The position numbers and the translations under genes are program-made. From IMG/VR virus record IMGVR_UViG_2654587728_000015: a stretch of 39,903 bases of DNA; one strand, 5' to 3'. Shown here in pieces: positions 1,647-39,903 of this stretch. Numbering within the stretch: the stretch's first letter is position 1; the number at the start of each line of letters is the position of its first letter. The notes under the pieces are model-generated. The model had not been told where the DNA came from, ran no database searches, and worked only from the letters and a program-made list of their open reading frames with translations. Source of the stretch: a virus. Taxonomy: Duplodnaviria > Heunggongvirae > Uroviricota > Caudoviricetes.

Positions 1647-1666
1647 CGAAATAACGAGGTCGTGTA

Positions 1667-2812: not shown

Positions 2813-2825
2813 TAGAGGGACTTTT

Positions 2826-24290: not shown

Positions 24291-24293
24291 AAA

Positions 24294-24629: not shown

Positions 24630-24672
24630 TTCGTCATCTCTCACCTCGCGATATTTGCGGGTGCTGTGTTGG

Positions 24673-24698
24673 AAATAAAAAGGCCACGCAACGTGGCC
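24673..24698 (-). terminator. Rho-independent terminator between methyltransferase and holin (GGCCACG-loop-CGTGGCC followed by TTTTTATTT)
   Basis: Perfect 7-bp GC stem with U-run on minus strand. Confidence 0.6.
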
Positions 24699-24705
24699 AC
24701 CAGAA

Positions 24706-25758: not shown

Positions 25759-25907
25759 GGATCAGTAAGCGTAACTCTGGTAGGCTCACTCTGCTTTTGC
25801 GCTAAAGCAGTGGGCCGTGGTTCGCTTGTGACCAGTAAGCATGAGCGAATGGCTGGCAGGTGCTACCAACACCCACCAGCCGCCCATTTTCACAAATTAA
25901 AAGCCCT

Positions 25908-26126
25908 TCATTGCTGAAGGCGTCTGTAACAGCCGAACTGGTAATCTGCCAGCCCCGCCATAACCAGCTGGGTCAGTATTAACTGACAGCGTTCGCGTGA
26001 AAGGTATGTGTTTTGTGCTATCTCCCCGACTGTTGCCGGTTCGACGCTTAATTCATTAAAAACAACTTTCGCCGTTTCTGTCATATCTAGCTGTTTTAGC
26101 ATGTCTTTTTTCCTTCTGGTTAACAT
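25908..26126 (-). CDS. Small hypothetical protein, first ORF downstream of the late promoter
   Basis: 72-aa ORF with ATG start; weak RBS; function unknown. Confidence 0.45.
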   Translation of the reverse strand: MLTRRKKDMLKQLDMTETAKVVFNELSVEPATVGEIAQNTYLSRERCQLILTQLVMAGLADYQFGCYRRLQQ

Positions 26127-26221
26127 GACATACCAATAACTCTTGTCTAAAAAGCCAGCAAGATAAAAAGTCAGTATTCACGACCACCAGCGTGTTTACC
26201 GTACTGCCAACATCAAGGCAC

Positions 26222-26246
26222 AAAAAAACCCGCTCAGCGGCGGGTT
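26222..26246 (-). terminator. tR'-like rho-independent terminator downstream of the late promoter
   Basis: Minus strand AACCCGC-loop-GCGGGTT followed by TTTTTTT. Confidence 0.7.
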
Positions 26247-26292
26247 CTTAAATCTTATCAACGGTAGACATACAAAGCCCATCGTTGGGAAA

Positions 26293-26321
26293 ATCTTATC
26301 CATATTTTTTGAAAAATGCAA
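26293..26321 (-). promoter_or_regulatory. pR'-like late promoter (-35 TTGCAT, 17-nt spacer, -10 TAAGAT) about 65 nt upstream of tR'-like terminator; expected Q-utilisation region
   Basis: Hexamers read on minus strand just downstream of Q gene; arrangement mirrors lambda pR'-qut-tR'. Confidence 0.5.
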
Positions 26322-26352
26322 GCATCATGTCGCCATCTTCGGCGAAAATCAT

Positions 26353-27111
26353 TTATCTTGTCACTTTTCTCAATTGTGTCTCTGCATATGCTTCTTCCTG
26401 CCAGCACTTTGTAACCAGTTTATCAATGACATCTGCATATCCTTTGTACCACTGATAATCCGTCAAATCTGGTACCAGTTTCTGTACATGATGCCGCGCC
26501 AGTGTGGTTGGTAAACGGCTAAACCGGTTTCCATTGCAACGTCCACAAATCTTATAAACAGGCGTGCCATGAAGCCGGGTCCTTTTTTCATCCAGGACAA
26601 TACCTTTACCCTTACACCCTCTGCACGCTGTGCTGACTTCTCCCTTACCATGACAATGCTGACATAGTTCCTTCACCCACTCCTCCTTGATAACAGATTC
26701 ACCGCTTCTGGAGTGTTTCACCACTTCGCGCAATACATTATGAAATCCAGTACCTGCACAATGCTCACAGCGAGCCTTACTTGCCGCAGACCTGGAATAA
26801 TCAGCAAAGGCAAAATTCACAAGGTAAGGGATGATCTGTAACCGGGTTTCTTCACTCAATTTATTCAATGTCGGGTTATCCAGTGCCATCGCGTAATTGA
26901 GCAGACCTTCAATCGCAAACTGAGGATCCTGAACACCAACTTTTGCCAGGAATAAGGCAAAACCCAGTGGTGCTTTCGACTGCACCATCCCCTGCGCAGC
27001 CATCACATCCGTAATCGTTAAACCACCAGAGCCTGTCGCCGGTGCGTCATCGCTCAATTTTGGAGATTTTGGGGAGTAATATTTTGGTAAGGCTTCAAGG
27101 TTCATGCTCAT
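26353..27111 (-). CDS. Q: Late-gene antitermination protein Q-like (Cys-rich zinc-binding region)
   Basis: 252-aa ORF with CEHCAGTG...CQHCHGKG...CRGCKGKG...CGRCNG motifs; located immediately upstream of pR'/tR'-like unit and lysis genes. Confidence 0.7.
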   Translation of the reverse strand: MSMNLEALPKYYSPKSPKLSDDAPATGSGGLTITDVMAAQGMVQSKAPLGFALFLAKVGVQDPQFAIEGLLNYAMALDNPTLNKLSEETRLQIIPYLVNFAFADYSRSAASKARCEHCAGTGFHNVLREVVKHSRSGESVIKEEWVKELCQHCHGKGEVSTACRGCKGKGIVLDEKRTRLHGTPVYKICGRCNGNRFSRLPTTLARHHVQKLVPDLTDYQWYKGYADVIDKLVTKCWQEEAYAETQLRKVTR

Positions 27112-27118
27112 TCTCCAC

Positions 27119-28114
27119 TTACGCCAGTACGCCTATTGCCAGCGCACGATCGATAAAACGAAATATCAGCTCCAGCTGGGAGCCATACTTCTCTTCAAAT
27201 GCCACGGTATCCGCATGCAGCTCGTCGTGATGCTTTCTGCACAAAGGCAACACAAAGAGGTCATGCGCTTTTGTACCCATTCCCCCCTGACCGTGGCCTA
27301 TCAGGTGGTGGGGATCATCAGCGGGCTTTCCACAACATGCACACGGCTGTGTCTTAACCCAGCGCGTGTACTTTTCATTAACCCAGCGGCGACGTTTTGG
27401 GCGTAACATAAAAGACTCCGGCGACTCCGGATCCACTTTCAGCGCCAGCACCTTTTTTGCCTTATCCTGGATGATGCTGGTGGCAGGAACCGAAGGCACA
27501 AGGTCACTTTCCCGGGTGACAGACGGCACAACAGGCTTTGGTAATCTCAGTGCCTTACGGGCTGCACTTTCCGGTAAGGCATCCGCCAGGTCATTACGAA
27601 TCAGCCACCAGCACAGTTCCGGCATTGTCACAACGTGACTATCATCAAAACCGAGATCCCGACGCACAACAGACAACACCCAGCGGGCACAGTTATCCGT
27701 TGCCATTGATTCCAGCCGTTCCGTGAACTGATCGCGCAGCTGGTTATCACAGTGCCAGCACAGACGGATTGCGCCCGGAGCGTGTCGCATTGTGGTCATG
27801 TTCTCGCTGTGCCAGTCGGAATGAGGCCACTGGCAGCCTTTTTCACGAAGTAACCAGCTTTCAAGACATTCCACGCCACCAGCACGACGGATCACTGCCT
27901 CATTGCGGAACACGGCCCGAACAGCAGGATCATCCGCCAGCGGTTGTGATGCCGCGGGAACGGCACCACTGGCGAAAGATGAATAACGTTCCGGCTCAGG
28001 CTCCAGCAGTACACGCCCCTGCATAAACAGGGGCATCAGCTCTGAACCTGGTCTGAACAATACGATCCCCATACGCGGGGCTATTTCAGGGGTCAGTAGT
28101 GCTCTCACGGTCAC
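27119..28114 (-). CDS. DUF968-family prophage protein with C-terminal HNH-like zinc-finger
   Basis: 331-aa ORF ending CACCGKPADDPHHLIGHGQ...CRKHHDELH; apparent GTG start. Confidence 0.6.
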   Translation of the reverse strand: MTVRALLTPEIAPRMGIVLFRPGSELMPLFMQGRVLLEPEPERYSSFASGAVPAASQPLADDPAVRAVFRNEAVIRRAGGVECLESWLLREKGCQWPHSDWHSENMTTMRHAPGAIRLCWHCDNQLRDQFTERLESMATDNCARWVLSVVRRDLGFDDSHVVTMPELCWWLIRNDLADALPESAARKALRLPKPVVPSVTRESDLVPSVPATSIIQDKAKKVLALKVDPESPESFMLRPKRRRWVNEKYTRWVKTQPCACCGKPADDPHHLIGHGQGGMGTKAHDLFVLPLCRKHHDELHADTVAFEEKYGSQLELIFRFIDRALAIGVLA

Positions 28115-28115
28115 C

Positions 28116-28913
28116 TCAATGAACGGTATCGAGCAACTTTAACAGCTCAGGGAATCGGGATTCGAAAAAGTGCGGCTGCGTCTCGCGCGGATTTGCGGGA
28201 CTGGTGATGTTCTTGCCGAACATGCAGCCTTTCGCTGTCAGCGACCAGAATTTTTTGATGTTGTTAATCGCGGTACGGCTGTATCGTTCGCGCTGCTCGA
28301 CGATCCCCAGCTTCACCATCTGGTGATATGCCTGATTAGCTGTCAGGCGGATACCATACTGCTTCAGCAGTGCACTCAGTGACAGCGTGGGGCGGCTTGA
28401 GCCATCAGGCGCGTCAGCAGGAGCATCAATGGCATAGCGCGGTGCCAGATTCGGTAAGCCAACAGCCTCCTGGAGTTTCTGACAGGCTCCAAGCACTGAA
28501 GAGTTAGACAGGTTTAATTCCCGGCGCATAAAGTCCAGCAGAATCACACCAGCCTGCATCTTGTCAGCAGCCTGTCCGGATAATTTTTCCGGTGCGCTGG
28601 TTACCATGTCGAAAGTACGGATCACCTTCAGATGGAATGACGGGCTTATCCACATTGCATAGGCATACACCAGTTCTTTGCAGACATACGTCCCCTGGTT
28701 ATTTCCGCCACGAATAACGTTAACTGGCTCTATATTGACCGAGTTGCAAATCTGCAACTCGCTTATTAAACGTTCAGTTTGCTCATTGCGGAGCCAGAAT
28801 GCAGGCTTATGCTTATCCAGAGAACCGGCAGCCCTGTGCAGATCGTTCAGGCTGTAACGACCATAAGCATCACGACGAACTTCAATACCATCAATGACCA
28901 TCAGATTATTCAT
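28116..28913 (-). CDS. KilA-N domain protein
   Basis: ORF 28116..28946; start taken at ATG 28913 with SD AGGAG; N-terminal KilA-N-like region (MNNLMVIDGIEVRRDAYGRYSLNDLHRAAG). Confidence 0.7.
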   Translation of the reverse strand: MNNLMVIDGIEVRRDAYGRYSLNDLHRAAGSLDKHKPAFWLRNEQTERLISELQICNSVNIEPVNVIRGGNNQGTYVCKELVYAYAMWISPSFHLKVIRTFDMVTSAPEKLSGQAADKMQAGVILLDFMRRELNLSNSSVLGACQKLQEAVGLPNLAPRYAIDAPADAPDGSSRPTLSLSALLKQYGIRLTANQAYHQMVKLGIVEQRERYSRTAINNIKKFWSLTAKGCMFGKNITSPANPRETQPHFFESRFPELLKLLDTVH

Positions 28914-28932
28914 ACTTCGTTTCTCCTCTTGA

Positions 28933-29322
28933 TCAGGCGGCTGCACCCGCCGTTTTCTCGTACTTACTGATGGTGATCTCGACCTTCCCTTTCGGGATAA
29001 CCGGTCCCCACTCCACCAGCATTCTTTTCACCTGTCTGTCGTCTTCCCACACACCCGCGTGGGTCAACGCGTCAAACAGCGCCTTGTTATAGTTGTCCAG
29101 ATCGCGGATCCGGTTATCCGGAGGAAACAACACGATCTCCACTGAAGCAGGTGCCGACGTTGGTTTTGGCAGACGACGTAACTGCTCAACTATTGCTGCG
29201 CACGCCGCGCTCTGAAATTTTCGCCCCGCCGCGCTTATCAGGCTCTTACCAGCAAATTCCCCCTTGTTGGGGTGTCGCCAGTACGAGTTCACGCTGGGCG
29301 GGAAAGGCAGGATCAGCTTCAT
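28933..29322 (-). CDS. rusA: Holliday junction resolvase RusA
   Basis: 129-aa ORF with RusA motifs (PPSVNSYW...DLDNYNKALFDALTHAGVWEDD). Confidence 0.85.
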   Translation of the reverse strand: MKLILPFPPSVNSYWRHPNKGEFAGKSLISAAGRKFQSAACAAIVEQLRRLPKPTSAPASVEIVLFPPDNRIRDLDNYNKALFDALTHAGVWEDDRQVKRMLVEWGPVIPKGKVEITISKYEKTAGAAA

Positions 29323-29645
29323 ACTTTCAGGCCTCTCTCATGTAACCAGTGGGCTGCACGCAGCCTGGCGTTTTCCTCACCGGCAAGCAGTGAGCGGATA
29401 ATCCCGACCGCCTCGCTGTCGTCGTCCTTCACCGCGGTATGAAGAGTGATACCCCGGGCCACGCCACGCTTTATCGTGATGACTCCTTTTTTCTCCAGTG
29501 CGCGAAGATGTTCCACCGCTGCATTCACTGAACGGTATCCCAGCATGGTTGCCACCTCCTGATTGGTTGGCGGGAAGCCACGTTCTTTCTGGTAAGAAAT
29601 CAGCATATCCAGCACCTGCTGCTGGCATTGAGTTAACGTCGTCAT
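29319..29645 (-). CDS. LexA N-terminal DNA-binding-domain-like protein lacking the S24 peptidase domain
   Basis: 108-aa ORF; pattern LT..QQ.V.D.I...GFPPT..E.A..LGYRS.NAA.EHL.AL.KKGVI.I..G.ARGI.L parallels the LexA winged-helix domain including the recognition helix. Confidence 0.7.
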   Translation of the reverse strand: MTTLTQCQQQVLDMLISYQKERGFPPTNQEVATMLGYRSVNAAVEHLRALEKKGVITIKRGVARGITLHTAVKDDDSEAVGIIRSLLAGEENARLRAAHWLHERGLKV

Positions 29646-30295
29646 GCCGCCATCTCCCTGACAAGTTTTTCCGCCTGCTGGCGAACCTGCGCCAGAAACG
29701 CCTCACCACATGCCTCAAGTTCATCGCGCCCGATGTAGCTGATTGCCGGTCCCTTCCAGGTCTTGTCGAAAACAGCAATAGCACCAGCGAAGAAAGCGCC
29801 TGTCGGCACCTGCTTCTCATCCTTCGGGATAAACCAGGCAGGCAGTTCAAAACCAATACGCCCGCGAATAAAAGCAATATGGTCTGCATCTTCCGGCCAC
29901 CAAACTTCGCTGGTGGCAGCTTTGATCAGGAAAACATAGCGCCCGCCTTTATCACGCATAGCACTGGCATGTTTCATGATGTAACGCATGCCGGTGATGT
30001 ATTGCCCCTCATGCTGACTGGCGCGGCTGTACGGGGGATTACCAAAGGCAGCACCTTTAAGCTCCGCAAGACGTTCTGACCAGTCATGCGCCAGCGCGTT
30101 GTCTTCCGCAGTGTAATAAGCGGCACATTTGGCGTTATCACCATCAGTAAACAGATCCAGAACAAACGGGCCAAACAGGGTGTTAATTCCCCAGAAAATG
30201 TTGTCCGGCGTGCGCCACTGATCGCCCACTTCCTTCAGTTCATGGGCTGGTTTGTTCCGCAGCTCCACCAGCGCCTGGCAATATTTATTACTCAT
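29642..30295 (-). CDS. Phage Dam-type DNA N6-adenine methyltransferase
   Basis: ORF 29642..30328 with ATG at 30295; motifs WRTPDNIF and NPPY. Confidence 0.8.
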   Translation of the reverse strand: MSNKYCQALVELRNKPAHELKEVGDQWRTPDNIFWGINTLFGPFVLDLFTDGDNAKCAAYYTAEDNALAHDWSERLAELKGAAFGNPPYSRASQHEGQYITGMRYIMKHASAMRDKGGRYVFLIKAATSEVWWPEDADHIAFIRGRIGFELPAWFIPKDEKQVPTGAFFAGAIAVFDKTWKGPAISYIGRDELEACGEAFLAQVRQQAEKLVREMAA

Positions 30296-30783
30296 TAAGC
30301 CCCCACGTAATTCCCTGACAGATACCACTCTTCACCCGATGCAGCGCGCTTGCTGCTTTTCCGTAAGCACCGCTCACGATGCGCCAGAAAATTGTTTCGT
30401 TCTGGCTGGGAGTGGCTTTCACGGAATGCCTCCATCCACACCGTTGCAGCTCGACGGAATAAGCCCCTGGACTCCAGTTCTTCAGCCTGGCGGGTCAGGC
30501 ACAAAATCACCCGGGGGTCGTTAGTGCCGACATAGAAATTGCGCACAGGTCTGGTTTCACGAACAGATTGTGGTTCCGGCTCCTGCGCTCTCTCAGTCAG
30601 GCGCGGGAAATGTCTGCGTGTATCTCCTTCACAACGGTGAGCCACACGCCCACTCTGACGTAACTTGCTTGCTGACTGCAGAACGCGCTGCCGTGAGTAA
30701 CCTGCAAAAGCATCCGCAATGTCTCCGGAAGTACACCCCGGATGGGCTTCAATGAATTTCTGAACTTCATTCAAAAGACTCAT
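30295..30783 (-). CDS. Hypothetical early protein with possible PerC/ANR-like C-terminal motif
   Basis: ORF 30295..30789 with ATG at 30783; segment AEELESRGLFRRAATVWMEAF resembles ANR/PerC signature; assignment tentative. Confidence 0.45.
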   Translation of the reverse strand: MSLLNEVQKFIEAHPGCTSGDIADAFAGYSRQRVLQSASKLRQSGRVAHRCEGDTRRHFPRLTERAQEPEPQSVRETRPVRNFYVGTNDPRVILCLTRQAEELESRGLFRRAATVWMEAFRESHSQPERNNFLAHRERCLRKSSKRAASGEEWYLSGNYVGA

Positions 30784-30785
30784 GA

Positions 30786-31592
30786 TCACCCCCTGAATCC
30801 TGCCGGGATCTGGCTGTAGTCCACGTTGTCGTAACTGGCTTTGAAGTACGGGTCCTCACGTCTGACTGCAGATACCGCAGGAACTTCCCAGGATTCTTCG
30901 AAATGACGATCCGGACCAAAGAACGTGACAGCCTGTTTCACAAATTGTGTGCCGCTGTTACCCATCGCAGATACCCAGCCCGCATAGCGTTTCACACCTT
31001 CCAGCATGGTTTCGGGGTTTACCCCCTCATTCAAACGGGCTTTCCAGGCTTTGAAGGCTGCAGATTTTGAATTGCCACCAGCACGTTTGGGATATGCCAG
31101 CCATGCCTGCTCAAACTCCGGAGAGTATTCCGGTCGGTTTGAACGAACTCGCACAGACTCATCAGCAGATGCACCAACAGCTATTGGTTCATTGACTGGT
31201 TCAAAAGAGTGACTGGTTCTGGGTGAATCTCCTGCACTACCCCCTGGTGCAACTCCTGCACTACCTGGTGAATTTGCTGCACCAGATAGTGAATTATTTG
31301 CACTACCCCCTAGTGAATCTCCTGCACCATCAAGATGAAGAAGATAGATATTACTTGAGTTACCTTTTTCACCTTTCCGGGTGACTTTTTTTACCAGCCC
31401 GGACTCACAGAGGGCCGCAATATGATTCATCACAGAACGTTTGCTAATCTCGCACTGATCAGCGATATGCTGATAGCTGGGCCAGCACTCGCCCTGATCG
31501 CTGGCATTATCAGCCAGCTTGATCAGAACCAGTTTTCGCAATGGATTACCCACTCGAATTTTCATCGCTTTAACCATCAGCTCCATACTCAT
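30786..31592 (-). CDS. Replication initiator (lambda O-like organisation: N-terminal HTH domain, repeat-encoded linker, C-terminal domain)
   Basis: 268-aa ORF; N-terminal winged-helix region; iteron array embedded in the central linker coding region; SD GGAGGTG. Confidence 0.65.
   Translation of the reverse strand: MSMELMVKAMKIRVGNPLRKLVLIKLADNASDQGECWPSYQHIADQCEISKRSVMNHIAALCESGLVKKVTRKGEKGNSSNIYLLHLDGAGDSLGGSANNSLSGAANSPGSAGVAPGGSAGDSPRTSHSFEPVNEPIAVGASADESVRVRSNRPEYSPEFEQAWLAYPKRAGGNSKSAAFKAWKARLNEGVNPETMLEGVKRYAGWVSAMGNSGTQFVKQAVTFFGPDRHFEESWEVPAVSAVRREDPYFKASYDNVDYSQIPAGFRG
31222..31327. repeat. Iteron array: about five ~20-bp direct repeats (consensus RGTGAATCTCCTGCACTACC) inside the initiator gene, flanked by an AT-rich stretch (31328..31375); candidate origin of replication
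   Basis: Direct repeats read at ~31222, 31245, 31266, 31287, 31311; encode Gly/Ser/Ala-rich linker. Confidence 0.6.
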
Positions 31593-31813
31593 GCTGCACC
31601 TCCGAGATGCTTCATGTTTTTTCCGGAGCGAAAGGCTATAAGCGGCATACTGACGCGGTAACTACGGCCCAGCGGTTCACAAATCACCTTCTGACATTCA
31701 CGGTCAACCAGGCTAACACGTAGAACATGCCCTGCAGGTGTGGTGTACCACTGACCCGGACGAGGACAACGGAAAGTCTGATTGGTAAACCGTTTGAAAA
31801 TATTCCGGATCAT
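31589..31813 (-). CDS. Hypothetical small early protein
   Basis: 74-aa ORF, ATGA-type overlap with downstream initiator gene. Confidence 0.45.
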   Translation of the reverse strand: MIRNIFKRFTNQTFRCPRPGQWYTTPAGHVLRVSLVDRECQKVICEPLGRSYRVSMPLIAFRSGKNMKHLGGAA

Positions 31814-32046
31814 TTGCGCCCCCTTACCTCTGAAGGGTTCAGCGACAAATTTATGAGGCAGGCCAGTGCCGAAGCATCATTAATATAGTCATACAAGCTA
31901 ACAGCCAGCGGAGATTCGGCTTTTGCCAACATAGGATAAAGCTGCTGCAGCCAGACCTGATGAATTGATGAAATGTAGGAATAGAGAACGCTGGCGTTAT
32001 GTGCAACGTCGCTCAGTACAGAGGGATTTGAAAGTTGTTTCTCCAT
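31810..32046 (-). CDS. Hypothetical small early protein
   Basis: 78-aa ORF in early operon, overlapping neighbours. Confidence 0.45.
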   Translation of the reverse strand: MEKQLSNPSVLSDVAHNASVLYSYISSIHQVWLQQLYPMLAKAESPLAVSLYDYINDASALACLINLSLNPSEVRGRK

Positions 32047-32961
32047 CTAGTTAAAGGCATTGATGTATGCCTCTTTGAACTGGGCAGCACGTTTACCCGT
32101 GAAACCCATAGCAAGAAACGCAAAGCCGTCGCGGGTTATTTGGTAGCAAGGAAGTTTGCGACCTGTGCAATCAGTGTAATCACTCACCGAAAAATTGCGG
32201 GCAGTGAATGATGCTGAGCATTCAAGCGTGCGGATCTTTTTCAGTACATCGTCATGACGTTTGGAGAAGAAGTTGGCAACAGCCAGGGATGAAGTAACAG
32301 CCTGACCATCAACGATGGCAATTTCAGGTTGAGTGAGGGTTGGGATCGTAGCCATGATGGCAGCCTCTTTGGTGATTTTTAATAACTCACCACCAAGGCT
32401 TTCCACGACCTTATTGGTGGTGAGACGTACAGGGGTGGAAATACCGGTCACCAAAGAACCCGGCCCAACCGAAGTTGGCCCTGTACGCCCCACCATAATT
32501 TGGGCGTAATGCTGCTCATGACACAAAAAAACCGCAAGAGCGCGGTTGTGCGCTTTGGTGAATTCCGGGTTTCCACGCCCGGCACCCGTTTTATAAGGTG
32601 CCTGAACAGTGTAACGTCCCGGAATGGCAGAATCAATGTGCTGGTGGTCCTTCACACTCAACAAAATCACGCCTGAATTTCCACAAAGGACTAAAGCACT
32701 CATGCGGGTAGTCTTTGCGAAGATAGATAACGCGCTGTGTTTCTGGTTCCCAACGAATAACATGGACATAAAGCCCTCTTCCGTCACGAAACCAGCGGTT
32801 AAGTTCCTGCACAACTCGCCCCCCACAGTCAGGTAAAGTTCTCTGTGGTTACTTACAGCCAGGTGATTTGGTAATCTGCATTCATGCCGTAACAACAAGT
32901 GTTCAGCGACACTGACCACCAGCTGTTGCGACAAACGGTTATTTGCCGTTAAACTGTTCAT
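32047..32961 (-). CDS. Rha/AntA-family phage regulatory domain protein (domain in C-terminal ~100 aa; N-terminal 200 aa unknown; possible internal start at 32355)
   Basis: C-terminal segment ...SSLAVANFFSKRHDDVLKKIRTL...YQITRDGFAFLAMGFTGKRAAQFKEAYINAFN matches Rha-type domain; internal SD AAGAGG plus ATG at ~32355. Confidence 0.55.
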   Translation of the reverse strand: MNSLTANNRLSQQLVVSVAEHLLLRHECRLPNHLAVSNHRELYLTVGGELCRNLTAGFVTEEGFMSMLFVGNQKHSALSIFAKTTRMSALVLCGNSGVILLSVKDHQHIDSAIPGRYTVQAPYKTGAGRGNPEFTKAHNRALAVFLCHEQHYAQIMVGRTGPTSVGPGSLVTGISTPVRLTTNKVVESLGGELLKITKEAAIMATIPTLTQPEIAIVDGQAVTSSLAVANFFSKRHDDVLKKIRTLECSASFTARNFSVSDYTDCTGRKLPCYQITRDGFAFLAMGFTGKRAAQFKEAYINAFN

Positions 32962-33509
32962 GCGTTAGTTTCTCCACAGACACAAAACGCCACGACGCCC
33001 GGAGCTGCACACTCGCGGGCGTCACTCTTTTCTGGAGCGCAGAAGATTTTGTAGACCAGTGCTGCATGTTCCTGGAGCTTCGAAATTGACAGATACAACT
33101 CATCATTAATTGCTGTCTGCTCGTGTGGCTCCACGACCCCATCTTCGATTGCCGAACGAATCTGCTTTGAGTAATTCCCGATCTGTTCGATGACTTCCAG
33201 CAGGCGCTGGTTTATATCGGCGTTCTCTACTTCATCAATTTCAGGAAGCGATACGAACACCCCACCAGCAGACTGTGCGACAGCATCCGCAATGTAGTGA
33301 GTGCCAGCCGCACGCTGTAAAACCATTGCCCATCCCAGCGGGAAAATCTGATCGCCATCTGCACGAAGGCGGTTGAATAAAGCGTTCTCTGTTACATCCA
33401 GCCAGTCAGCAGCTTCAGCGTAACCCCCAGGCAATGCCGCGATAGTTTTTCTGACAGCTTTCACGTACCACTCAGGTTGTTTTTCCACTTTCCAGTGATG
33501 CTTACCCAC
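32958..33509 (-). CDS. Hypothetical protein in the cII-equivalent position (possibly YdaT/CII-analog family)
   Basis: 183-aa ORF immediately after cro, apparent GTG start with strong SD AGGAGGT; family assignment by position only. Confidence 0.5.
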   Translation of the reverse strand: MGKHHWKVEKQPEWYVKAVRKTIAALPGGYAEAADWLDVTENALFNRLRADGDQIFPLGWAMVLQRAAGTHYIADAVAQSAGGVFVSLPEIDEVENADINQRLLEVIEQIGNYSKQIRSAIEDGVVEPHEQTAINDELYLSISKLQEHAALVYKIFCAPEKSDARECAAPGVVAFCVCGETNA

Positions 33510-33762
33510 GGCTTACCTCCTGTTCCTGTGGTTTAAACCCATTCTGGTTTTGGCTAGATTGAAAACGTGCCGGATAAAGAATCTGCATTTCGCTGATTTC
33601 ACCCTTAAAAAAATTGGCCAGACGTTCTGCAAGATCGATAGATGGAATTTGTTCCAGTCTTTCAATACGACTCAGCGTCGCTGGATTGACCTGAACGCCC
33701 GCAGCAACATGCTGCAAAGTAAATCCGTGCGCCTTACGCACATTCCGTAATGGTGATTGCAT
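33502..33762 (-). CDS. cro: Cro-like HTH repressor
   Basis: 86-aa XRE-type HTH protein (FTLQHVAAGVQVNPATLSRIE) divergent from cI; SD GGAGGT. Confidence 0.8.
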   Translation of the reverse strand: MQSPLRNVRKAHGFTLQHVAAGVQVNPATLSRIERLEQIPSIDLAERLANFFKGEISEMQILYPARFQSSQNQNGFKPQEQEVSRG

Positions 33763-33859
33763 ATAACCTCCACATATTGCGTGATGAGCATATTATTTCA
33801 CGCAAATATTTTGCGCAAGTTGATTTGCTTAACGCGCAATAAAGAAATGTAATAAACGC
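33763..33859. promoter_or_regulatory. OR-like operator/promoter region between cro and cI with TTGC-N7-GCAA sites (perfect at ~33825..33839, one-mismatch at ~33777..33791) plus additional TTGCGCAA palindrome
   Basis: Inverted-repeat half-sites read directly; divergent genes on both sides. Confidence 0.6.
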
Positions 33860-34552
33860 ATGAACATAGGAAATCGAGTCAGACAACTTCGCCAGGCGAA
33901 GAACATGAAAATCGCCGATCTCGCTGAAGCAATAGGAGTGGATGCGGCGAATATCTCGCGCCTCGAAACAGGTAAGCAGAAACAATTCACTGAACAAGCC
34001 CTGAGTAATATTGCCAGGAGCTTAGGTGTTGATATTGCTGATCTCTTTACCTCAGACCTCAAAAGTAATACTGTATGTAAAAACAGTATTAGTGAGGATG
34101 TTGCGCAGGTGAAGGATGTATTCCGTATTGAAATGCTGGATGTCAGTGCCAGTGCGGGAAATGGCCTTATCCAGGGCGGTGATGTCATTGATGTGATTCA
34201 TGCCATTGAATACAGAACTGATAATGCTGTATCGATGTTTGGTGGACGACCAGCAAATCACATTAAAGTTATCAACGTTCGTGGGGACAGTATGTGTCCA
34301 ACCATTGAGCCAGGAGATCTCATCTTCGTTGATATCAGTATCAATCAGTTTGATGGGGATGGTATATATGTATTTGGTTTTGATGATAAAATTTACGTCA
34401 AACGACTGCAAATGATACCTGATAAACTGCTGGTAATTTCTGATAATCAGATTTACCGCGAATGGGGAATTACCAGCGAAAACGAACACAGGTTTATGGT
34501 CTTTGGAAAGGTCTTAATCAGTCAGTCACAAACCCTTAAGCGACACAATTAA
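33860..34552 (+). CDS. cI: CI-like prophage repressor (HTH plus LexA-like S24 autopeptidase domain)
   Basis: 230-aa ORF; N-terminal HTH (IADLAEAIGVDAANISRLE), C-terminal GDSM serine and KRL lysine of S24 fold; no obvious SD, consistent with leaderless PRM-type transcript. Confidence 0.85.
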   Translation: MNIGNRVRQLRQAKNMKIADLAEAIGVDAANISRLETGKQKQFTEQALSNIARSLGVDIADLFTSDLKSNTVCKNSISEDVAQVKDVFRIEMLDVSASAGNGLIQGGDVIDVIHAIEYRTDNAVSMFGGRPANHIKVINVRGDSMCPTIEPGDLIFVDISINQFDGDGIYVFGFDDKIYVKRLQMIPDKLLVISDNQIYREWGITSENEHRFMVFGKVLISQSQTLKRHN

Positions 34553-34574
34553 CCCCCTACCTCAACATCAATTA

Positions 34575-34598
34575 GCCACCAGAAGGTGGCTTTTCATT
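34575..34598 (+). terminator. Rho-independent terminator after cI (GCCACC-AGAA-GGTGGC then TTTTCATT)
   Basis: Perfect 6-bp GC stem and T-run immediately 3' of cI stop. Confidence 0.6.
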
Positions 34599-34608
34599 AC
34601 TCACGCTA

Positions 34609-34646
34609 TTGCATATCTCGCAATAAAATACTTGCACGTTACGCAA
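34609..34646. promoter_or_regulatory. OL-like operator pair: two perfect TTGC-N7-GCAA sites (~34609..34623 and ~34632..34646), likely overlapping a rightward PL-type promoter
   Basis: Same half-site architecture as OR sites; located upstream of the rightward early operon. Confidence 0.55.
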
Positions 34647-35071
34647 TTTCATTTTATCTTTCTTTCCAGACCAACAAACAAGGTCCTGACAAAATTTGGT
34701 TGTAACACGGCGTATGGCACATGCGTCGTTAGCGGTCTGGGGACGTTAAAGGGGACAATCCACTCCTTGCTCGGGCAAACAAACCAGGTAGCCGGAATGT
34801 GCAAGTCAATGAGGATGCTGATAAGACGCCTAACCAGCGTGGCGATTCGGTTTGACGCCTGGGAAGAGACCAGGGTGCAACGATGAGGGCATTTATGGAA
34901 CCTCGACAAAGTGTGGTGCCGTAACTGGCTAAGTGCTCTCAGCGTTGTGGTAATCCGCGAAATGGCGCGGCGGTAAGTATGGCGGGGTTACTCTTTCCCC
35001 GTTGAGGACACCGGATTGTCAGGTTGACCATACGCCTGAGTGACAACCACACCACAACAGCCACTGCTTTG

Positions 35072-35206
35072 GCGGTACCAGTTTGTACACTTGCTTCCGG
35101 CTGGTACCGCTCTTTTTACAAAACAGAGAAGAGCATCACCGGACGACTGGCTCATAACCCAATCCATCCGGGCGGCTACCACCGCAGGTGTTCTTCTCTG
35201 TTTTGT
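35072..35206 (+). other. Structured element in untranslated leader: 10-bp hairpin (GCGGTACCAG...CTGGTACCGC) followed by CGCTCTTTTTACAA (boxA-like) and a 15-bp long-range inverted repeat (ACAAAACAGAGAAGA / TCTTCTCTGTTTTGT)
   Basis: Inverted repeats read directly; no convincing ORF between cI terminator and 35255. Confidence 0.4.
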
Positions 35207-35254
35207 GGAGAAACCAACCGACCTTGCAGGGTCGATATGATGAGGAGCAGCAAA

Positions 35255-35617
35255 ATGGCTAGCGAACGCAGTACCAACGTGCAGGAATTTATCGGGGAGC
35301 TGGACGGCGGCGTATTTGAAACCAAAATCGGCGCAGTTCTCAGTGAAGTCGCTTCCGGTGTGATGAACACGAAAACCAAAGGTAAGGTCTCACTCAACCT
35401 GGAAATCGAACCATTTGATGAGAACCGTGTGAAAATCAAACACAAACTCTCATATGTTCGCCCGACTAACCGCGGGAAAATTTCCGAAGAAGACACCACC
35501 GAAACGCCGATGTATGTCAATCGCGGTGGTCGCCTGACTATTCTGCAGGAAGACCAGGGACAATTACTGACTCTTGCCGGTGAACCTGACGGAAAACTCC
35601 GCGCAGCAGGTCATTAA
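35255..35617 (+). CDS. Hypothetical early protein (YfdP-like size and position)
   Basis: ORF 35024..35617 with best start ATG 35255 preceded by SD AGGAG; 120 aa. Confidence 0.6.
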   Translation: MASERSTNVQEFIGELDGGVFETKIGAVLSEVASGVMNTKTKGKVSLNLEIEPFDENRVKIKHKLSYVRPTNRGKISEEDTTETPMYVNRGGRLTILQEDQGQLLTLAGEPDGKLRAAGH

Positions 35618-35682
35618 TATCGTTCTTAATTAACTGATTATTTATCTCATCACTGAATATCTTAATATAGTGAGGACTTATT

Positions 35683-36507
35683 ATGTCTCAGAACTTAGAC
35701 TCAACCGCAATTAATCAAATCCATGCCCTTATTTCTGCTCAGGGTGTTAATGAAATTATCAGTAAGATTGGTGCCGATGCTGTGGCATTGCCTGAGAATT
35801 TCCGCATTCATGATCTGGAAAAATTTAATTTAAATCGTTTCCGTTTCCGTGGTGCACTTTCCACTGCCAGCATCGATGACTTTACCCGTTATTCTAAAGA
35901 TCTTGCAGATGAAGGCACCCGCTGCTTTATCGATGCCGATAATATGCGAGCCGTCAGTGTGCTTAACCTGGGTACTATTGATGAACCAGGTCACGCAGAT
36001 AACACCGCCACTCTCAAACTGAAAAAGACAGCACCGTTCTCTGCTCTGTTGTCTGTTAATGGCGAGCGTAACTCCCAGAAGTCACTGGCAGAATGGATTG
36101 AAGACTGGGCAGACTACCTTGTGGGCTTTGATGCTAATGGTGACGCCATTCAGGCAACCAAAGCGGCTGCGGCGATCCGTAAAATCACAATTGAAGCGAA
36201 CCAGACCGCTGATTTTGAAGACAATGACTTCAGCGGCAAACGCTCCCTGATGGAGTCTGTCGAAGCGAAGACCAAAGACATTATGCCAGTGGCATTTGAA
36301 TTTAAATGCGTTCCGTTTGAAGGTCTGAAAGAACGTCCGTTTAAATTACGCCTCAGCATTATCACTGGCGATCGTCCTGTACTGGTTCTGCGCATTATTC
36401 AGCTGGAGGCGGTGCAGGAAGAAATGGCTAACGAATTTCGTGATCTGCTTGTTGAGAAATTCAAGGACAGCAAAGTAGAAACCTTTATTGGTACTTTCAC
36501 CGCCTGA
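35683..36507 (+). CDS. yfdQ: DUF2303-family prophage protein (YfdQ-like)
   Basis: 274-aa ORF; length and sequence recall E. coli CPS-53 YfdQ; SD GTGAGGA. Confidence 0.6.
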
Positions 36508-36634
36508 TTTCATTACTGCAAATGCCCCTGCGGGGGCATTTATGGAAACGTAATTTACTCAATAATCGCCGGATGGTGAGGGATTCTTTTTACCAGAATT
36601 CAGCGCGGTGCAGCGCATATACGTGGAGAACAAA

Positions 36635-37171
36635 ATGTCATTTATCAAAACTTTTTCTGGGAAGCATTTTTATTATGACAGGATAAATAAAGACGACATC
36701 GATATTAACGATATCGCGGTTTCCCTTTCAAATATCTGTCGCTTTGCCGGTCATCTTTCGCACTTCTACAGCGTCGCCCAACATGCGGTTCTTTGCAGCC
36801 AGCTGGTGCCGCAGGAATTTGCTTTTGAAGCGTTAATGCATGATGCAACAGAAGCGTATTGCCAGGACATTCCCGCACCACTGAAACGCCTTCTTCCTGA
36901 CTATAAACGGATGGAAGAAAAAATAGACGCCGTAATCCGTGAGAAATACGGGTTACCACCGGTTATGAGTACGCCCGTGAAATATGCCGATCTCATCATG
37001 CTGGCAACCGAACGCCGCGATCTCGGGCTTGATGATGGCTCTTTCTGGCCTGTACTGGAAGGTATCCCGGCAACAGAGATGTTCAACGTGATTCCACTGG
37101 CTCCAGGCCATGCCTACGGGATGTTTATGGAACGCTTTAACGAATTATCGGAGTTACGCAAATGCGCATGA
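36635..37171 (+). CDS. yfdR: HD-domain phosphohydrolase, YfdR-like 5'-deoxynucleotidase
   Basis: ORF 36608..37171 with ATG at 36635 (SD GGAGAA); HD motif (HLSHFYSVAQHAV...MHDATEAYCQD); 178 aa. Confidence 0.7.
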   Translation: MSFIKTFSGKHFYYDRINKDDIDINDIAVSLSNICRFAGHLSHFYSVAQHAVLCSQLVPQEFAFEALMHDATEAYCQDIPAPLKRLLPDYKRMEEKIDAVIREKYGLPPVMSTPVKYADLIMLATERRDLGLDDGSFWPVLEGIPATEMFNVIPLAPGHAYGMFMERFNELSELRKCA

Positions 37172-37524
37172 ATGTTTTCGAAATGGAAGGATTTCTTCGC
37201 GGGAAATGTGTACCGCGAGATCTGAAAGTGAATGAAACGGATGCTGAATACCTGGTGCGTAAATTTGATGCGCTTGAAGCTAAATGTGCAGCACTGGAAA
37301 ACAAAGTAATACCAGTGTCAGCTGAACTGCCGCCAGCGAATGAAAGTGTTCTGTTATTTGATGCTAATGGAGAAGGCTGGCTGATTGGCTGGCGTTCTCT
37401 CTGGTATACATGGGGGCAAAAAGAAACCGGAGAATGGCAGTGGACATTTCAGGTCGGGGACCTTGAAAACGTCAACATCACTCACTGGGCAGTAATGCCA
37501 AAAGCACCGGAGGCTGGAGCATAA
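37162..37524 (+). CDS. yfdS: Hypothetical protein (YfdS-like)
   Basis: 120-aa ORF following HD hydrolase gene, as in CPS-53. Confidence 0.55.
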   Translation: MRMNVFEMEGFLRGKCVPRDLKVNETDAEYLVRKFDALEAKCAALENKVIPVSAELPPANESVLLFDANGEGWLIGWRSLWYTWGQKETGEWQWTFQVGDLENVNITHWAVMPKAPEAGA

Positions 37525-38333
37525 TGACCACATTTACCGATAAAGAACTGATTAAAGAAATCAAAGAACGAATCAGCAGCATGGACGTGCGAGACAATGT
37601 TGAGCGCCGTGCTTATGAAATTGCTCTGGCATCGCTGGAAGAGGATCCGGTGGCATGGCTGCATTCAGACAATGGCTTAGGTATTCCGGCAATAACCAGG
37701 AGTAAAAACATTGCTGACAGTTGGTTATCAAAGGGCTGGTATGTTCAGCCGCTATATATAGCCAAGCCAGTGCCGGTGGTGCCAGATGCTCGTCCGTCTT
37801 TAAATAATGGCATAGTCGGTTTTGATGAAGGCTGGAACGCCTGCCGCGCTGCCATGCTCTATGGTGCCGTACCTGCAAGCCAGGCTTACAAGTTGCCACA
37901 AACGCAGTTTAAACAGGTTGCTGACCTCTACGAAATGCAATTTGATGACGGTCGCACTTGTGCCTTTCACACTGATGCGCAAAAGGCTGTGCAATGGCTT
38001 CAGGCGTGCGACGGAAACAGGGTTCAGGAATACGTTAAGCTGGAACGATTGCAGAACGCACTGTCTGGCAACTCTCCGGTAACTCCGGATGGTTGGGTTA
38101 TGGTGCCGAAGAGACTAACAGCCGAGAACGGCGCTAAGGGGGCGCTATCCGGTGAATTTTCAGAAACTACGTTTATAAGCTGCCTGGAATGCTTTGGCGA
38201 TGATGATTGCGATACCTGTGACGGGAGCGGACGTATTGAAATTAAAGTGCCAGTCACGTGGTCGACCATAAAATCTATCTGGGATAAAGGTATCGAGTAT
38301 TTTGCAGCAAAACCATCACAAGAGGTGAAGTGA
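37524..38333 (+). CDS. Hypothetical protein with C-terminal DnaJ-like CxxCxGxG zinc-finger
   Basis: 269-aa ORF; C-terminal CLECFGDDDCDTCDGSGRIEI. Confidence 0.6.
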   Translation: MTTFTDKELIKEIKERISSMDVRDNVERRAYEIALASLEEDPVAWLHSDNGLGIPAITRSKNIADSWLSKGWYVQPLYIAKPVPVVPDARPSLNNGIVGFDEGWNACRAAMLYGAVPASQAYKLPQTQFKQVADLYEMQFDDGRTCAFHTDAQKAVQWLQACDGNRVQEYVKLERLQNALSGNSPVTPDGWVMVPKRLTAENGAKGALSGEFSETTFISCLECFGDDDCDTCDGSGRIEIKVPVTWSTIKSIWDKGIEYFAAKPSQEVK

Positions 38334-38905
38334 TGAACAACTTAATGATCGACCTTGAGACGATGGGGAAAAATAAGGATGCACCGATCGTTTCCATTGG
38401 CGCGGTGTTCTTCACTCCAGAAACCGGAGACATCGGACAAGAATTCTATACGGTTGTTAGCCTGGAAAGTGCTATGGGGCAAGGAGCTACACCTGACGGC
38501 GATACCATCCTGTGGTGGTTGAAACAAAGCCCTGAAGCACGAGCTGCAATCTGTATTGATGATACTTTGTCGATCAGCGATGCTCTCTCAGAACTAAATC
38601 ATTTCATTAACCGGCACGCAGACAATACGAAATATTTAAAAGTCTGGGGTAACGGAGCCACCTTCGACAACGTAATTTTACGTGGAGCTTATGAGCGAGC
38701 AGGACAAATCTGCCCGTGGGCATACTGGAATGACCACGATGTACGCACGATCGTTACGCTTGGGCGTTCCATCGGATTCGACCCCAAAATGGACATGCCT
38801 TTCGATGGCGAACGGCACAACGCCCTGGCTGATGCCCGTCATCAGGCAAAATATGTTTCCGCTATCTGGCAGAAATTAATTCCTGCCACCAGCACAGAAT
38901 TATGA
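38333..38905 (+). CDS. DnaQ-like 3'-5' exonuclease (DEDDh family)
   Basis: ORF 38330..38905 with ATG 38333; motifs MIDLETMG, WGNGATFDNVIL, HNALADARHQAKY. Confidence 0.75.
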   Translation: MNNLMIDLETMGKNKDAPIVSIGAVFFTPETGDIGQEFYTVVSLESAMGQGATPDGDTILWWLKQSPEARAAICIDDTLSISDALSELNHFINRHADNTKYLKVWGNGATFDNVILRGAYERAGQICPWAYWNDHDVRTIVTLGRSIGFDPKMDMPFDGERHNALADARHQAKYVSAIWQKLIPATSTEL

Positions 38906-38941: not shown

Positions 38942-39223
38942 ATGAACACCTTGTTTTTACTGATGGCTGAATTCAATACCCCTAACATTGAACTCTCAGC
39001 AGTTAGCCAAAAGTACTTTGGCATGAGTCCAGCCACGGCAGAAGCAAAAGCAAACGCTTGTAAGTTGCCCGTTCCAACATATCGCATCGGCACATCACAA
39101 AAAGCAAAACGTTGCATCAATATTCAGGATCTTGCGGAATACATAGACAAAAGACGAGAAGAAGGACGTATCGAGTGGGAACAGGTCAGAACAAGCAAAC
39201 AGAAGGGCAAAGAACATCACTAA
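38942..39223 (+). CDS. PrtN-family / excisionase-like small DNA-binding protein (candidate recombination directionality factor)
   Basis: ORF 38915..39223 with ATG 38942 (SD GGAG); last gene of rightward operon, which in the circular phage lies next to attP/int. Confidence 0.45.
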   Translation: MNTLFLLMAEFNTPNIELSAVSQKYFGMSPATAEAKANACKLPVPTYRIGTSQKAKRCINIQDLAEYIDKRREEGRIEWEQVRTSKQKGKEHH

Positions 39224-39227
39224 ATAA

Positions 39228-39252
39228 AAAACCCGCCTAAAGGCGGGTTTTC
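39228..39252. terminator. Bidirectional rho-independent terminator (ACCCGCC-TAAA-GGCGGGT flanked by A-run and T-run)
   Basis: Perfect 7-bp GC stem between convergent genes. Confidence 0.75.
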
Positions 39253-39270: not shown

Positions 39271-39434
39271 TCATGCTGCTTTGCGACGACGAAGCTTACC
39301 CTGCTGCTCTTTACCAGAGACAGTAGCGTGAGTGAACGCATTAGGAGCAGCCTTCATCAGAACTTCAACAGCAGCACCCATACCTGCGAATGCTTTCATT
39401 GTGTCGAACTTAACCTGTGGCTTGGTTGCTTTTT
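39271..39434 (-). CDS. Small hypothetical protein (54 aa), convergent with phage early operon
   Basis: ATG with SD AGGAG 7 nt upstream; MEDQKATKPQVKFDTMKAFAGMGAAVEVL...; not in ORF track because under 60 aa. Confidence 0.45.
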
Positions 39435-39483
39435 GATCTTCCATAGAAAACTCCTGAAGTTATACCGAAACAATTCCTGTTGT

Positions 39484-39903
39484 TTACTCATCATCAATAG
39501 ATGATACGCAATATTTATTTTTAAATTTAAGGTTCTTTGGCGTAACTTCATCAGAGATATCAAAACCGTCCAGAATTCTATTGAATGTAGCTTCTGGCAT
39601 ATCATCATGAACAGAAATCTCACCCGATCGCTGCTTTCTAACCATGTTATCCACTCGCCAAATTATAGCTTCAGCGTAAACAACATAACTTGGATGCTTG
39701 ATAAAGCGATGATCACCAGAATTCAAGACGCAAGACGGATCGTGGGGGACACCATCCTTGATACTAGAAATATTAACAACTAAAACACAATAACAATCGT
39801 TAACGGGGTAATAAACAGGATCATTACAAATCACATGAAGATGATTGCATGGCCCAGTTGGGGCAAGCACAGTTCCTTTCCTGTATGGCTGATAATCCGT
39901 CAT
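39484..39903 (-). CDS. AT-rich hypothetical protein (139 aa), start coincides with window edge
   Basis: ORF with ATG at 39903; clearly AT-rich relative to neighbouring phage genes; Cys/His-rich N-terminal half. Confidence 0.5.
   Translation of the reverse strand: MTDYQPYRKGTVLAPTGPCNHLHVICNDPVYYPVNDCYCVLVVNISSIKDGVPHDPSCVLNSGDHRFIKHPSYVVYAEAIIWRVDNMVRKQRSGEISVHDDMPEATFNRILDGFDISDEVTPKNLKFKNKYCVSSIDDE

Follow-up and report, generated by a model that had tools for sequence, protein, structure and literature searches.

The 39,903-nucleotide stretch of DNA held as IMG/VR virus record IMGVR_UViG_2654587728_000015 (hereafter the window, whose positions are used throughout) is a piece of Escherichia coli chromosome with an entire prophage inserted in dusA. 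This analysis concerns one operon of that prophage, a block of six open reading frames at 35255-38905 that opens with the genes yfdP and yfdQ, is directly preceded by a structured leader RNA, and is followed by an excisionase gene that ends the operon. All six reading frames lie on the + strand, at the positions given in an earlier note on this DNA. The note had likened the first four to proteins of the E. coli K-12 cryptic prophage CPS-53, and full-length BLASTP alignments revealed a closer relationship than it had claimed. These four are yfdP (35255-35617, 120 amino acids, 97.5% identity to K-12 YfdP), yfdQ (35683-36507, 274 amino acids, a DUF2303 protein, 99.3% identity), yfdR (36635-37171, 178 amino acids, an HD-domain phosphohydrolase, 98.3% identity) and yfdS (37162-37524, 120 amino acids, with a coiled-coil N-terminus and a DUF551 C-terminus, 98.3% identity). 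They are followed by a 269-residue mosaic accessory protein of the Ea22/EaA type with a C-terminal four-cysteine knuckle (37524-38333), and by a 190-residue DEDDh 3'-5' exonuclease of the Rv2179c/T4 DexA family (38333-38905, Pfam 4.1e-75), for which an alternative GTG start at 38330 would give 191 residues. The zinc-finger protein and exonuclease proposed in the note are both present, with the correction that they are encoded by two distinct reading frames that overlap by a single base. The last gene of the operon encodes a PrtN-family excisionase (38942-39223, + strand; Pfam PyocinActivator, 4.1e-23; PHROG 1300 excisionase, 8e-40). A hairpin lies 3' of this gene at 39227-39252, and a terminator scan called a terminator there on the - strand only.

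The last four genes of the block, from yfdR through the exonuclease, overlap by 1-10 bases, the longest overlap being the 10 nucleotides shared by yfdR and yfdS, and overlaps of this kind suggest that these genes are translationally coupled. RefSeq names at loci of 100% identity agree with the gene calls made here: yfdP, yfdQ, yfdR (5'-deoxynucleotidase), phage protein, hypothetical protein, 3'-5' exonuclease and PrtN-family protein. At least part of the block was found in 3572 of 5426 complete E. coli genomes, about two thirds, and in 138 phage records that include SfV, mEp460 and many Shiga-toxin phages. With this distribution in E. coli the module is already known, catalogued and very common, and as a set of genes it is ordinary. 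What is new here is the strict pairing of YfdP with YfdQ, the association of that pair with recombination modules in unrelated phages, and a covariation-supported leader RNA that is absent from Rfam (no match at E <= 1 in 34500-35300). The earlier reading of the operon had overlooked both the leader and the pairing.

The regulatory region of the prophage is lambdoid, with Q, cII-like, cro and cI genes. The cI-type repressor gene (33860-34552, + strand) encodes a helix-turn-helix domain and an S24 peptidase domain (Pfam HTH_3, 1.1e-10, and Peptidase_S24, 5.9e-19; PHROG 4, transcriptional repressor). It is oriented like the module, and cro (33502-33762, - strand) and the cII-like gene (32958-33509, - strand, with a Phage_CP76 match) diverge from it, so that the module is the counterpart of the lambda PL operon. 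Within this Chi-rich prophage of the SfV/mEp460 kind, the block forms the early-left operon on the side of the repressor. The lambda-like early position assigned to it in the earlier note thus stands, since the block lies on the repressor side of the immunity region with the excisionase at its end, as in the PL operon of lambda. A hairpin with a 7-base-pair stem containing five G-C pairs was called by the terminator scan on both strands just after the cI stop codon (34574-34591). Downstream of it are two operator-like 15-mers of the form TTGC-N7-GCAA (34609-34623 and 34632-34646, + strand) that match sites in the cro-cI spacer, exactly at 33825-33839 and with one mismatch at 33777-33791. Five exact matches to the 15-mer occur in the window, three of them in the two intergenic regions that flank cI. 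The same likeness was detected as a repeat family (D4), with 84% identity over 19 nucleotides between 33825-33843 and 34609-34627. We infer that 34609-34646 contains the OL/PL region of the module.

Between these sites and yfdP lies a conserved, structured leader RNA of about 190 nucleotides (35068-35254, + strand). The homology block common to many phages begins at about 35050-35072, upstream of the yfdP start codon, and hence takes in the leader. Its first element, stem-loop 1 (SL1, 35071-35111), is a G+C-rich, terminator-like hairpin followed by a U-tract at 35112-35120 (UCUUUUUAC). The second (SL2, 35113-35211) consists of a basal stem of 24 base pairs and two branches, and its core, AUCACCGG..GAC.GGCUCAUAACCCAAUCC, is nearly invariant. 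The third (SL3, 35219-35234) adjoins the ribosome-binding site, a Shine-Dalgarno sequence GAGGAG at 35242-35247. The predicted folding energy of the leader was -92.9 kcal/mol, compared with -58.2 +/- 4.6 kcal/mol for shuffled sequences (z = -7.6), and RNAalifold returned 42 base pairs, 11 with compensatory changes. In an alignment of 32 sequences that had been fitted to the model, 96.8% of cells pair, 20 of the 42 pairs show double (compensatory) changes, and the covariation score was 0.242, compared with 0.126 for shuffles (none of 500 reached the observed value) and 0.04-0.07 for slid partners. A covariance model of the leader scored 164 bits on the + strand of the window and 29 bits on the - strand. 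This asymmetry, together with the many G-U pairs, indicates that the functional form of the leader is the + strand RNA.

Matches to the covariance model always lay directly before yfdP. The model exceeded 100 bits in 27 loci and gave 20-65 bits in loci of Yersinia, Serratia, Rahnella, Providencia, Proteus, Chania and Buttiauxella. In all, the leader was found in more than 15 genera of Enterobacterales, in every case ahead of a yfdP that opens the operon, and its nucleotide identity is 70-90% in genera where YfdP identity is only 57-77%. It is present where yfdP opens the operon (the window, mEp460 and many Enterobacterales loci) and was not found in CPS-53, in phage P13374, where yfdP lies in mid-operon, or in the Vibrio, Xanthomonas and Pseudomonas phages and distant loci that were searched. 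From this pattern of presence and absence, the element belongs to operons that begin with yfdP. No second copy was detected in the window with either an nhmmer profile or the covariance model, and the region fetched from phage HK022 (27000-34000, which should contain the immunity region) gave no match to the leader model.

Where SL1 was fully captured, its hairpin had a predicted energy of -17 to -24 kcal/mol and ended 1-2 nucleotides before a run of five or six U, and its stem sequences differ between genera. A hairpin and U-run conserved in form while the stem varies is the signature of an intrinsic terminator, and SL1 looks like a terminator on these grounds. It is probable that the leader acts as a gate for the transcript or brings about its processing, through attenuation, antitermination or RNase III cleavage. 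The lambda N leader carries an RNase III site, and the long SL2 before the first gene recalls that site. A reading of the leader as a boxA/nut element was dropped, as the CGCUCUU core of the window is not conserved in relatives. Separately, the SL1 loop of several relatives (loci L040, L024, L045, L052, L054, L016 and others, from Mixta, Phytobacter, Erwinia, Citrobacter, Mangrovibacter and other genera) was seen to contain a strong ribosome-binding site and a start codon (GGAGG..GATAATGTTCTG), which the version in the window lacks. The short reading frame that begins there extends into the 3' arm and the U-tract of the terminator-like hairpin, an arrangement that suggests leader-peptide attenuation in those relatives. 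PHROG families 3651 and 33599 match short open reading frames across the leader, and these are probably mis-called genes.

The genes that accompany yfdQ were tallied in 80 genomic loci with YfdQ relatives, one genome per species. Most were from Enterobacterales, with some from Marinobacter, Hahella, Photobacterium, Kistimonas and Pontibacterium. YfdP was encoded directly upstream of YfdQ on the same strand in all 79 loci with room for it, at a gap of 22-168 nucleotides (median 60), and a YfdP homologue also precedes YfdQ in each of six distant phages examined, with a frameshift in P13374. YfdR lay downstream of YfdQ in 57 of 77 loci (within 200 nucleotides in 53) and in none of eight distant loci; the exonuclease was found downstream of YfdQ in 25 of 72 loci, and YfdS in six loci. 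By these counts only the YfdP-YfdQ pair is invariant; in Enterobacterales YfdR often joins it, and the other genes are exchangeable cargo. In P13374 (annotated host E. coli O104:H4; locus L096, 4558-4934) the YfdP homologue is split over two reading frames upstream of an intact YfdQ. The 127-nucleotide spacer between yfdQ and yfdR (36508-36634, + strand) is 70-80% conserved across genera and opens with a G+C-rich hairpin of 9 base pairs predicted by RNAfold (36520-36541). This hairpin may be a partial terminator or a stabiliser that sets the ratio of yfdPQ expression to that of the downstream genes.

YfdQ matched the Pfam family DUF2303 (PF10065) with 311.3 bits against a cut-off of 26.6 (E = 6.5e-93), residues 8-272 aligning to positions 3-269 of the 269-position profile. 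The family comprises 1789 representatives at 50% identity (about 1800), and in a search for fusion partners among 1.84 billion representatives the best 150 DUF2303 proteins were all single-domain proteins of about 265-290 amino acids. A solved structure, PDB entry 9O7M ('YfdQ Protein'), is a homologue of YfdQ at E = 7.9e-45 and contains 36 chains of one sequence. A literature search returned no publication on 9O7M or on the function of DUF2303. Profile searches of PDB sequences with a 65-sequence YfdQ alignment recovered only 9O7M, and those with a 44-sequence YfdP alignment recovered nothing, so that 9O7M appears to have been solved without a YfdP homologue. The AlphaFold model of YfdQ consists of a long N-terminal helix and two beta-beta-beta-alpha units, with a low-confidence loop at residues 171-197. 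It had no informative fold neighbour in PDB fold libraries that did not include 9O7M. YfdP had no match in the copy of Pfam that was searched, and it is assigned to PF27127 in precomputed annotations. Its AlphaFold model consists of a helix and a three-stranded sheet, and the predicted local distance difference test (pLDDT) score is below 50 at residues 91-105. The most conserved part of the protein, residues 78-104 (EEDTTETPMYVNRGG.LTILQEDQGQ), overlaps this worst-modelled segment, and the model would fit a C-terminal stretch that folds only on a partner.

The surroundings of the pair in the six distant phages bear on what it may do. In Vibrio phage 24E30.2 the gene order is ERF, YqaJ-fusion, DEDDh exonuclease, YfdP, YfdQ and SSB; in Vibrio phage PGB it is ERF, YqaJ-fusion, a small open reading frame, YfdP and YfdQ; in Xanthomonas phage CP2 it is YfdP, YfdQ, DUF1351, ERF, YqaJ and HNH; and in the Stx2a-type phage P13374 it is Gam-like, RecT, Exo, SSB, YfdP, YfdQ and Ea22-like. 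The pair adjoins a divergently transcribed helicase gene in Vibrio phage D93, and in Pseudomonas phage PG1 it lies in the temperate early region just before the integrase. Thus four of the six phages place the pair directly beside a recombination module equipped with an annealing protein of its own. This neighbourhood points to a part for the pair in transactions of DNA ends, single-stranded DNA or recombination-dependent replication, or to host enzymes of those processes as its targets. From this small sample, the pair most likely acts on DNA ends, single-stranded DNA, or host recombination or replication proteins. The large YfdQ oligomer fits such a role, as does the sensitivity of yfdQ deletion mutants to methyl methanesulfonate (MMS), which is cited together with sensitivity to H2O2 in a study of DnaA (PMC4776307). 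YfdQ has an isoelectric point (pI) of 4.97 and YfdP is also acidic, a property more in keeping with DNA mimicry or the targeting of proteins than with simple binding of DNA. About 900 base pairs downstream of the YfdQ and SSB genes, Vibrio phage 24E30.2 also encodes a protein with a Tad2-like (anti-Thoeris) domain (locus L092, 6212-6721).

The same evidence raises the question of whether YfdP and YfdQ, perhaps together with the exonuclease, might be an unrecognised recombinase that replaces Red, Erf or RecT, with YfdQ as a new single-strand annealing protein. The pair sits at the place expected of a recombination module in a prophage that has none of the known kinds: exo/bet/gam, erf and recT were all absent from the full prophage, and only RusA was present. 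YfdQ is a very large homo-oligomer, as annealing proteins form, its model contains two beta-beta-beta-alpha units, and in other phages the pair adjoins SSB and exonuclease genes. The pair nevertheless coexists with ERF or RecT in the same phages, and the presence of an annealing protein in the adjoining module speaks against the pair being the recombinase; the authors of PMC12315714 argue likewise from phage ArgO145. YfdQ is moreover acidic, and it showed neither sequence nor fold similarity to the cores of the annealing proteins Rad52, Red-beta, RecT, ERF and Sak. We consider a recombinase of this kind very unlikely. The window contains 21 Chi sites (GCTGGTGG), 17 of them on the - strand, where 1.55 would be expected; examples are at 14101, 20043 and 24069-33262, and only one (38886-38893) lies within the module. 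A lambdoid class described in 2025 as 'no Rec module, high Chi' carries homologues of yfdP, yfdQ and yfdR (PMC12315714), and the lack of a recombination module together with the 21 Chi sites places this prophage in it.

YfdR, which the earlier note had taken for an HD-domain deoxynucleotidase, matched PHROG 318 at 1e-111, has the HD motif residues H50 and H69-D70, and aligned with the HD protein Atu1052 (PDB 2GZ4, E = 3e-14) across the HD and downstream D positions. By these sequence features it belongs to the HD-domain phosphohydrolase superfamily. Its Pfam hits, to HD and YfbR-like families, all stayed below threshold. The narrower assignment to YfbR-type 5'-deoxynucleotidases did not hold, as YfdR scored 24.2 bits against a cut-off of 25.9 for PF12917 and 19.9 against 122 for NCBIfam NF003009. 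Published work on the near-identical CPS-53 proteins bears on function. YfdR of CPS-53 binds domain I of DnaA in a manner that depends on Phe46, and competes moderately with DiaA and DnaB (Noguchi and Katayama, PMC4776307). In the same study, multicopy yfdQRS or yfdQRT inhibited initiation at oriC in vivo, and extracts oversupplied with YfdQRST inhibited it in vitro. Because of the near-identity of the proteins, these results on DnaA binding and initiation almost certainly apply to the proteins encoded in the window.

The two proteins that follow YfdR are less clearly classified. Residues 50-117 of YfdS reached the DUF551 family (PF04448) marginally, at 22.1 bits against a cut-off of 22. The 269-residue protein is mosaic in make-up: its residues 1-42 share 81% identity with YfdT and also match SfIV, residues 119-198 are 85% identical to EaA/DUF551 proteins of Shiga-toxin phages, and residues 90-260 match a Salmonella phage protein. 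The segments 1-114, 119-198 and 90-260 each occur in different phages, and coverage of 80% or more of the protein was reached in just 14 of the 250 matching phage records. No Pfam family (E <= 0.01) and no PDB relative was found for it. Its knuckle, C220-x2-C223-x5-C229-x2-C232-D-G-S-G, is a single CxxC-x5-CxxCxGxG unit. The DnaJ-like zinc finger ascribed to this protein in the note proved not to be a cysteine-rich domain of the DnaJ type, which was ruled out by the presence of one unit instead of four CxxCxGxG repeats and by the lack of a Pfam DnaJ match.

It had also been proposed that the HD-domain deoxynucleoside monophosphate (dNMP) phosphatase works with the exonuclease to alter nucleotide pools or to remove nucleotide-derived signals, and so counters nucleotide-based host defences. 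Both enzymes do act on nucleotides or nucleic acids and lie in an accessory early region, K-12 YfdR is cited as having measurable dNMP phosphatase activity (PMC4776307), and the Tad2-like gene near yfdQ in phage 24E30.2 indicates that anti-defence genes can share this neighbourhood. Searches with PADLOC gave no direct support: YfdR and the four other non-nuclease proteins matched nothing, and the exonuclease matched only a generic CRISPR-associated DEDDh model (E = 2.3e-5). YfdR falls below the YfbR-like and equivalog thresholds, and its affinities when the K-12 protein was assayed on nucleotides were far below YfbR's (Zimmerman 2008, as cited in PMC4776307). Cyclic signalling nucleotides offer a DEDDh exonuclease no free 3' end, two unrelated genes separate the two enzymes, and their presence beside YfdQ differs (57 of 77 loci compared with 25 of 72). 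An anti-defence role through nucleotides is in our judgement quite improbable.

The exonuclease itself is firmly identified, as the note had it, by its family score and a complete set of catalytic residues. It matched Rv2179c-like (PF16473) with 251.8 bits against a cut-off of 27, and the DEDDh residues D7, E9, D112 and H162-x4-D167 are all present. It is 29% identical to T4 DexA (E = 7e-17) and matched PDB entry 8KEL at 8e-11, and relatives were found in 1238 phage records. An E. coli homologue of DexA called 'EcD', one of the modification-dependent 'HREX' exonucleases, is reported to degrade T4 DNA and protect cells against T4 (2025, PMC12153337). Residues S80 and D83 of the window exonuclease correspond to the tetramer residues S87 and D90 of DexA; EcD lacks these, with alanine at the D90 position. 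The alignment with DexA ends before D169, the second residue that reads 5-hydroxymethylcytosine. The defence subtype represented by EcD was defined in that paper by the loss of D90, and by this criterion the window exonuclease, which retains D83, falls outside it.

The EcD results, and the stress phenotypes of CPS-53, bear on the possibility that these genes benefit the lysogen through low-level expression from the prophage, with yfdQ and yfdS contributing stress tolerance and the DexA-like exonuclease excluding T-even phages by way of their modified DNA ('HREX'). The block has been kept at 96% DNA identity in CPS-53, which is cryptic and has no repressor, and is present at least in part in the 3572 E. 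coli genomes. Deletions of yfdQ or yfdS are cited as raising sensitivity to H2O2 or MMS (PMC4776307), and production of YfdQ altered the production of another phage in K-12. Plasmid-borne EcD gave protection against T4, and it cut the DNA of T4 but left unmodified DNA uncut (PMC12153337), and the equivalent of DexA W152 is conserved in the window exonuclease as W132. Set against this, the operon of the intact prophage lies behind operator-like sites and a terminator-like leader with the excisionase as its last gene, which argues for silence in lysogens. The exonuclease, as noted, is not of the EcD subtype by the criterion of that paper; CPS-53, the setting in which the stress phenotypes were recorded, does not carry it, and those phenotypes are weak. 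A benefit to the lysogen is therefore a possibility that we regard as unlikely.

In the reading that we favour, and to which we would give an even chance of being correct, the operon is a repressor-controlled cassette for DNA metabolism and host takeover, the equivalent of the PL operon, that is expressed on prophage induction. Transcription would start near the operator-like sites just downstream of cI and would then have to pass the structured leader. YfdP and YfdQ would be made first and would act together on DNA ends, single-stranded DNA or host recombination or replication proteins, with YfdQ forming large homo-oligomers and not itself serving as the strand-annealing protein. YfdR would bind domain I of DnaA and, with YfdQ and either YfdS or YfdT, would damp initiation at the host origin, its dNMP phosphatase activity being presumably weak. 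The DexA-type exonuclease would trim 3' ends or degrade DNA, possibly in cooperation with YfdR, and the terminal excisionase would couple expression of the operon to excision. The identities of the genes, the layout of the operon, its conservation and the fold of the leader are shown, as are, through published work on the near-identical K-12 proteins, DnaA binding and the block of initiation upon overexpression; control by the repressor, what the leader does, the part played by YfdP and YfdQ and any joint action of YfdR and the exonuclease are inferred. The statement in the earlier note that none of these proteins has an established role was only partly right, given the binding of YfdR to DnaA and the inhibition of oriC initiation (PMC4776307), the action of EcD on T4 (PMC12153337) and the structure of a YfdQ homologue (9O7M).

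Several points weigh against such a cassette. YfdR is absent from 20 of the 77 loci and from all eight distant ones, and the exonuclease is present in only 25 of 72; with so patchy a distribution of both, the cassette is not an obligate functional unit. The effect on initiation needs overexpression, and deletion of yfdQRST had no replication phenotype, as the authors concede (PMC4776307). A promoter scan returned no convincing sigma-70 promoter beside the operator-like sites, the gene neighbourhood of the pair was sampled in six distant phages only, and no experiment on an inducible phage of this type was found in the searchable literature.

A more far-reaching proposal has two parts: that the leader is a new class of cis-acting RNA controlling read-through of its own terminator, and thereby entry into the entire early-left operon, in lambdoid prophages of Enterobacterales that lack N, and that YfdP and YfdQ form a novel accessory of two proteins that assists recombination or replication, for instance by modulating host RecBCD/Chi or DNA ends. 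That both parts are true seems to us improbable. If they are, the pair would be common to phages, both temperate and virulent, of Escherichia, Vibrio, Xanthomonas and Pseudomonas. At least some of the block is found in roughly two thirds of complete E. coli genomes and also in Shiga-toxin phages such as P13374, recorded from an O104:H4 host; this spread gives its core pair importance, and the results lead to direct experiments on the control of early transcription and on replication in lambdoid phages without N and without a recombination module.

Host DNA at the left of the window (about 1-3000) contains dnaB, qorA, pspG and dusA, and the prophage integrase gene adjoins dusA. The prophage's virion genes specify a head of the HK97 type and a contractile tail. 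Beyond the excisionase (39271-39903) are two small genes on the - strand that match PHROGs 2741 and 19071, and just outside the window (locus L001, 8901-9831) are a Panacea-domain gene and a repeated fragment of dusA, the marker of the right attachment site. Downstream of the cII-like gene, 32413-32500 and 32525-32601 on the - strand gave Rfam matches to C4 antisense RNA (84.5 bits) and to the Hfq-binding RNA isrK (67.9 bits), which point to an antisense immunity element of the P1/P7 type in the early-right operon. The unannotated segment between the operator-like sites and the leader (34694-34950) shows 78-88% identity to stretches between genes in phages P1, P7 and D6 and to DNA lying just upstream of a tRNA-Arg gene of O157 typing phage 9. 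No tRNA gene was found in the window.

The likeness of YfdR to YfbR lies in the HD motif; K-12 YfdR has been described as structurally homologous to YfbR, and RefSeq gives it the name '5'-deoxynucleotidase'. It differs in its sub-threshold family scores, its lower reported affinities and its additional binding of DnaA, and its closest solved relative is Atu1052. The exonuclease shares with T4 DexA and EcD the DEDDh family, the catalytic residues and W132, the equivalent of the modification-sensing W152 of DexA. It is about 37 residues shorter than DexA, and it sits in a putatively repressed early operon and is not a standalone defence gene. As a structured RNA that opens an early operon, the leader resembles the put RNAs of HK022 and the nutL/N-leader region of lambda, and the phage described here has no N homologue. 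The put RNAs of HK022 are two-stem elements of about 70 nucleotides that form a putL/putR pair, with copies downstream of both early promoters, whereas the leader is a single copy of about 190 nucleotides that begins with a terminator-like hairpin, and an RNA of the HK022 put type was rejected on this basis. Put-like antitermination has been suggested by Casjens and colleagues for the related phage LLS.

At the level of the operon, the nearest counterparts are the early-left operons of SfV, mEp460, ST64B and LLS, lambdoid phages of the 'no Rec module, high Chi' class (PMC12315714) that, like the prophage in the window, lack recombination genes and are rich in Chi. CPS-53 (KpLE1) carries yfdP-yfdQ-yfdR-yfdS-yfdT, with the same genes in the same order and spacing and a single DNA match of 96.3% over 2406 base pairs. 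It has lost the immunity region and the leader RNA, its homology beginning 19 nucleotides before yfdP. A short YfdT takes the place of the 269-residue protein, with only residues 1-42 shared; the exonuclease is missing, and the excisionase is TorI and not of the PrtN type. Phage mEp460 has five other small open reading frames between yfdS and the exonuclease in place of the 269-residue protein, and its region from cI to the leader differs from that of the window. From the leader through yfdS, however, it is 97% identical to the window, and it shares the exonuclease and the excisionase as well.

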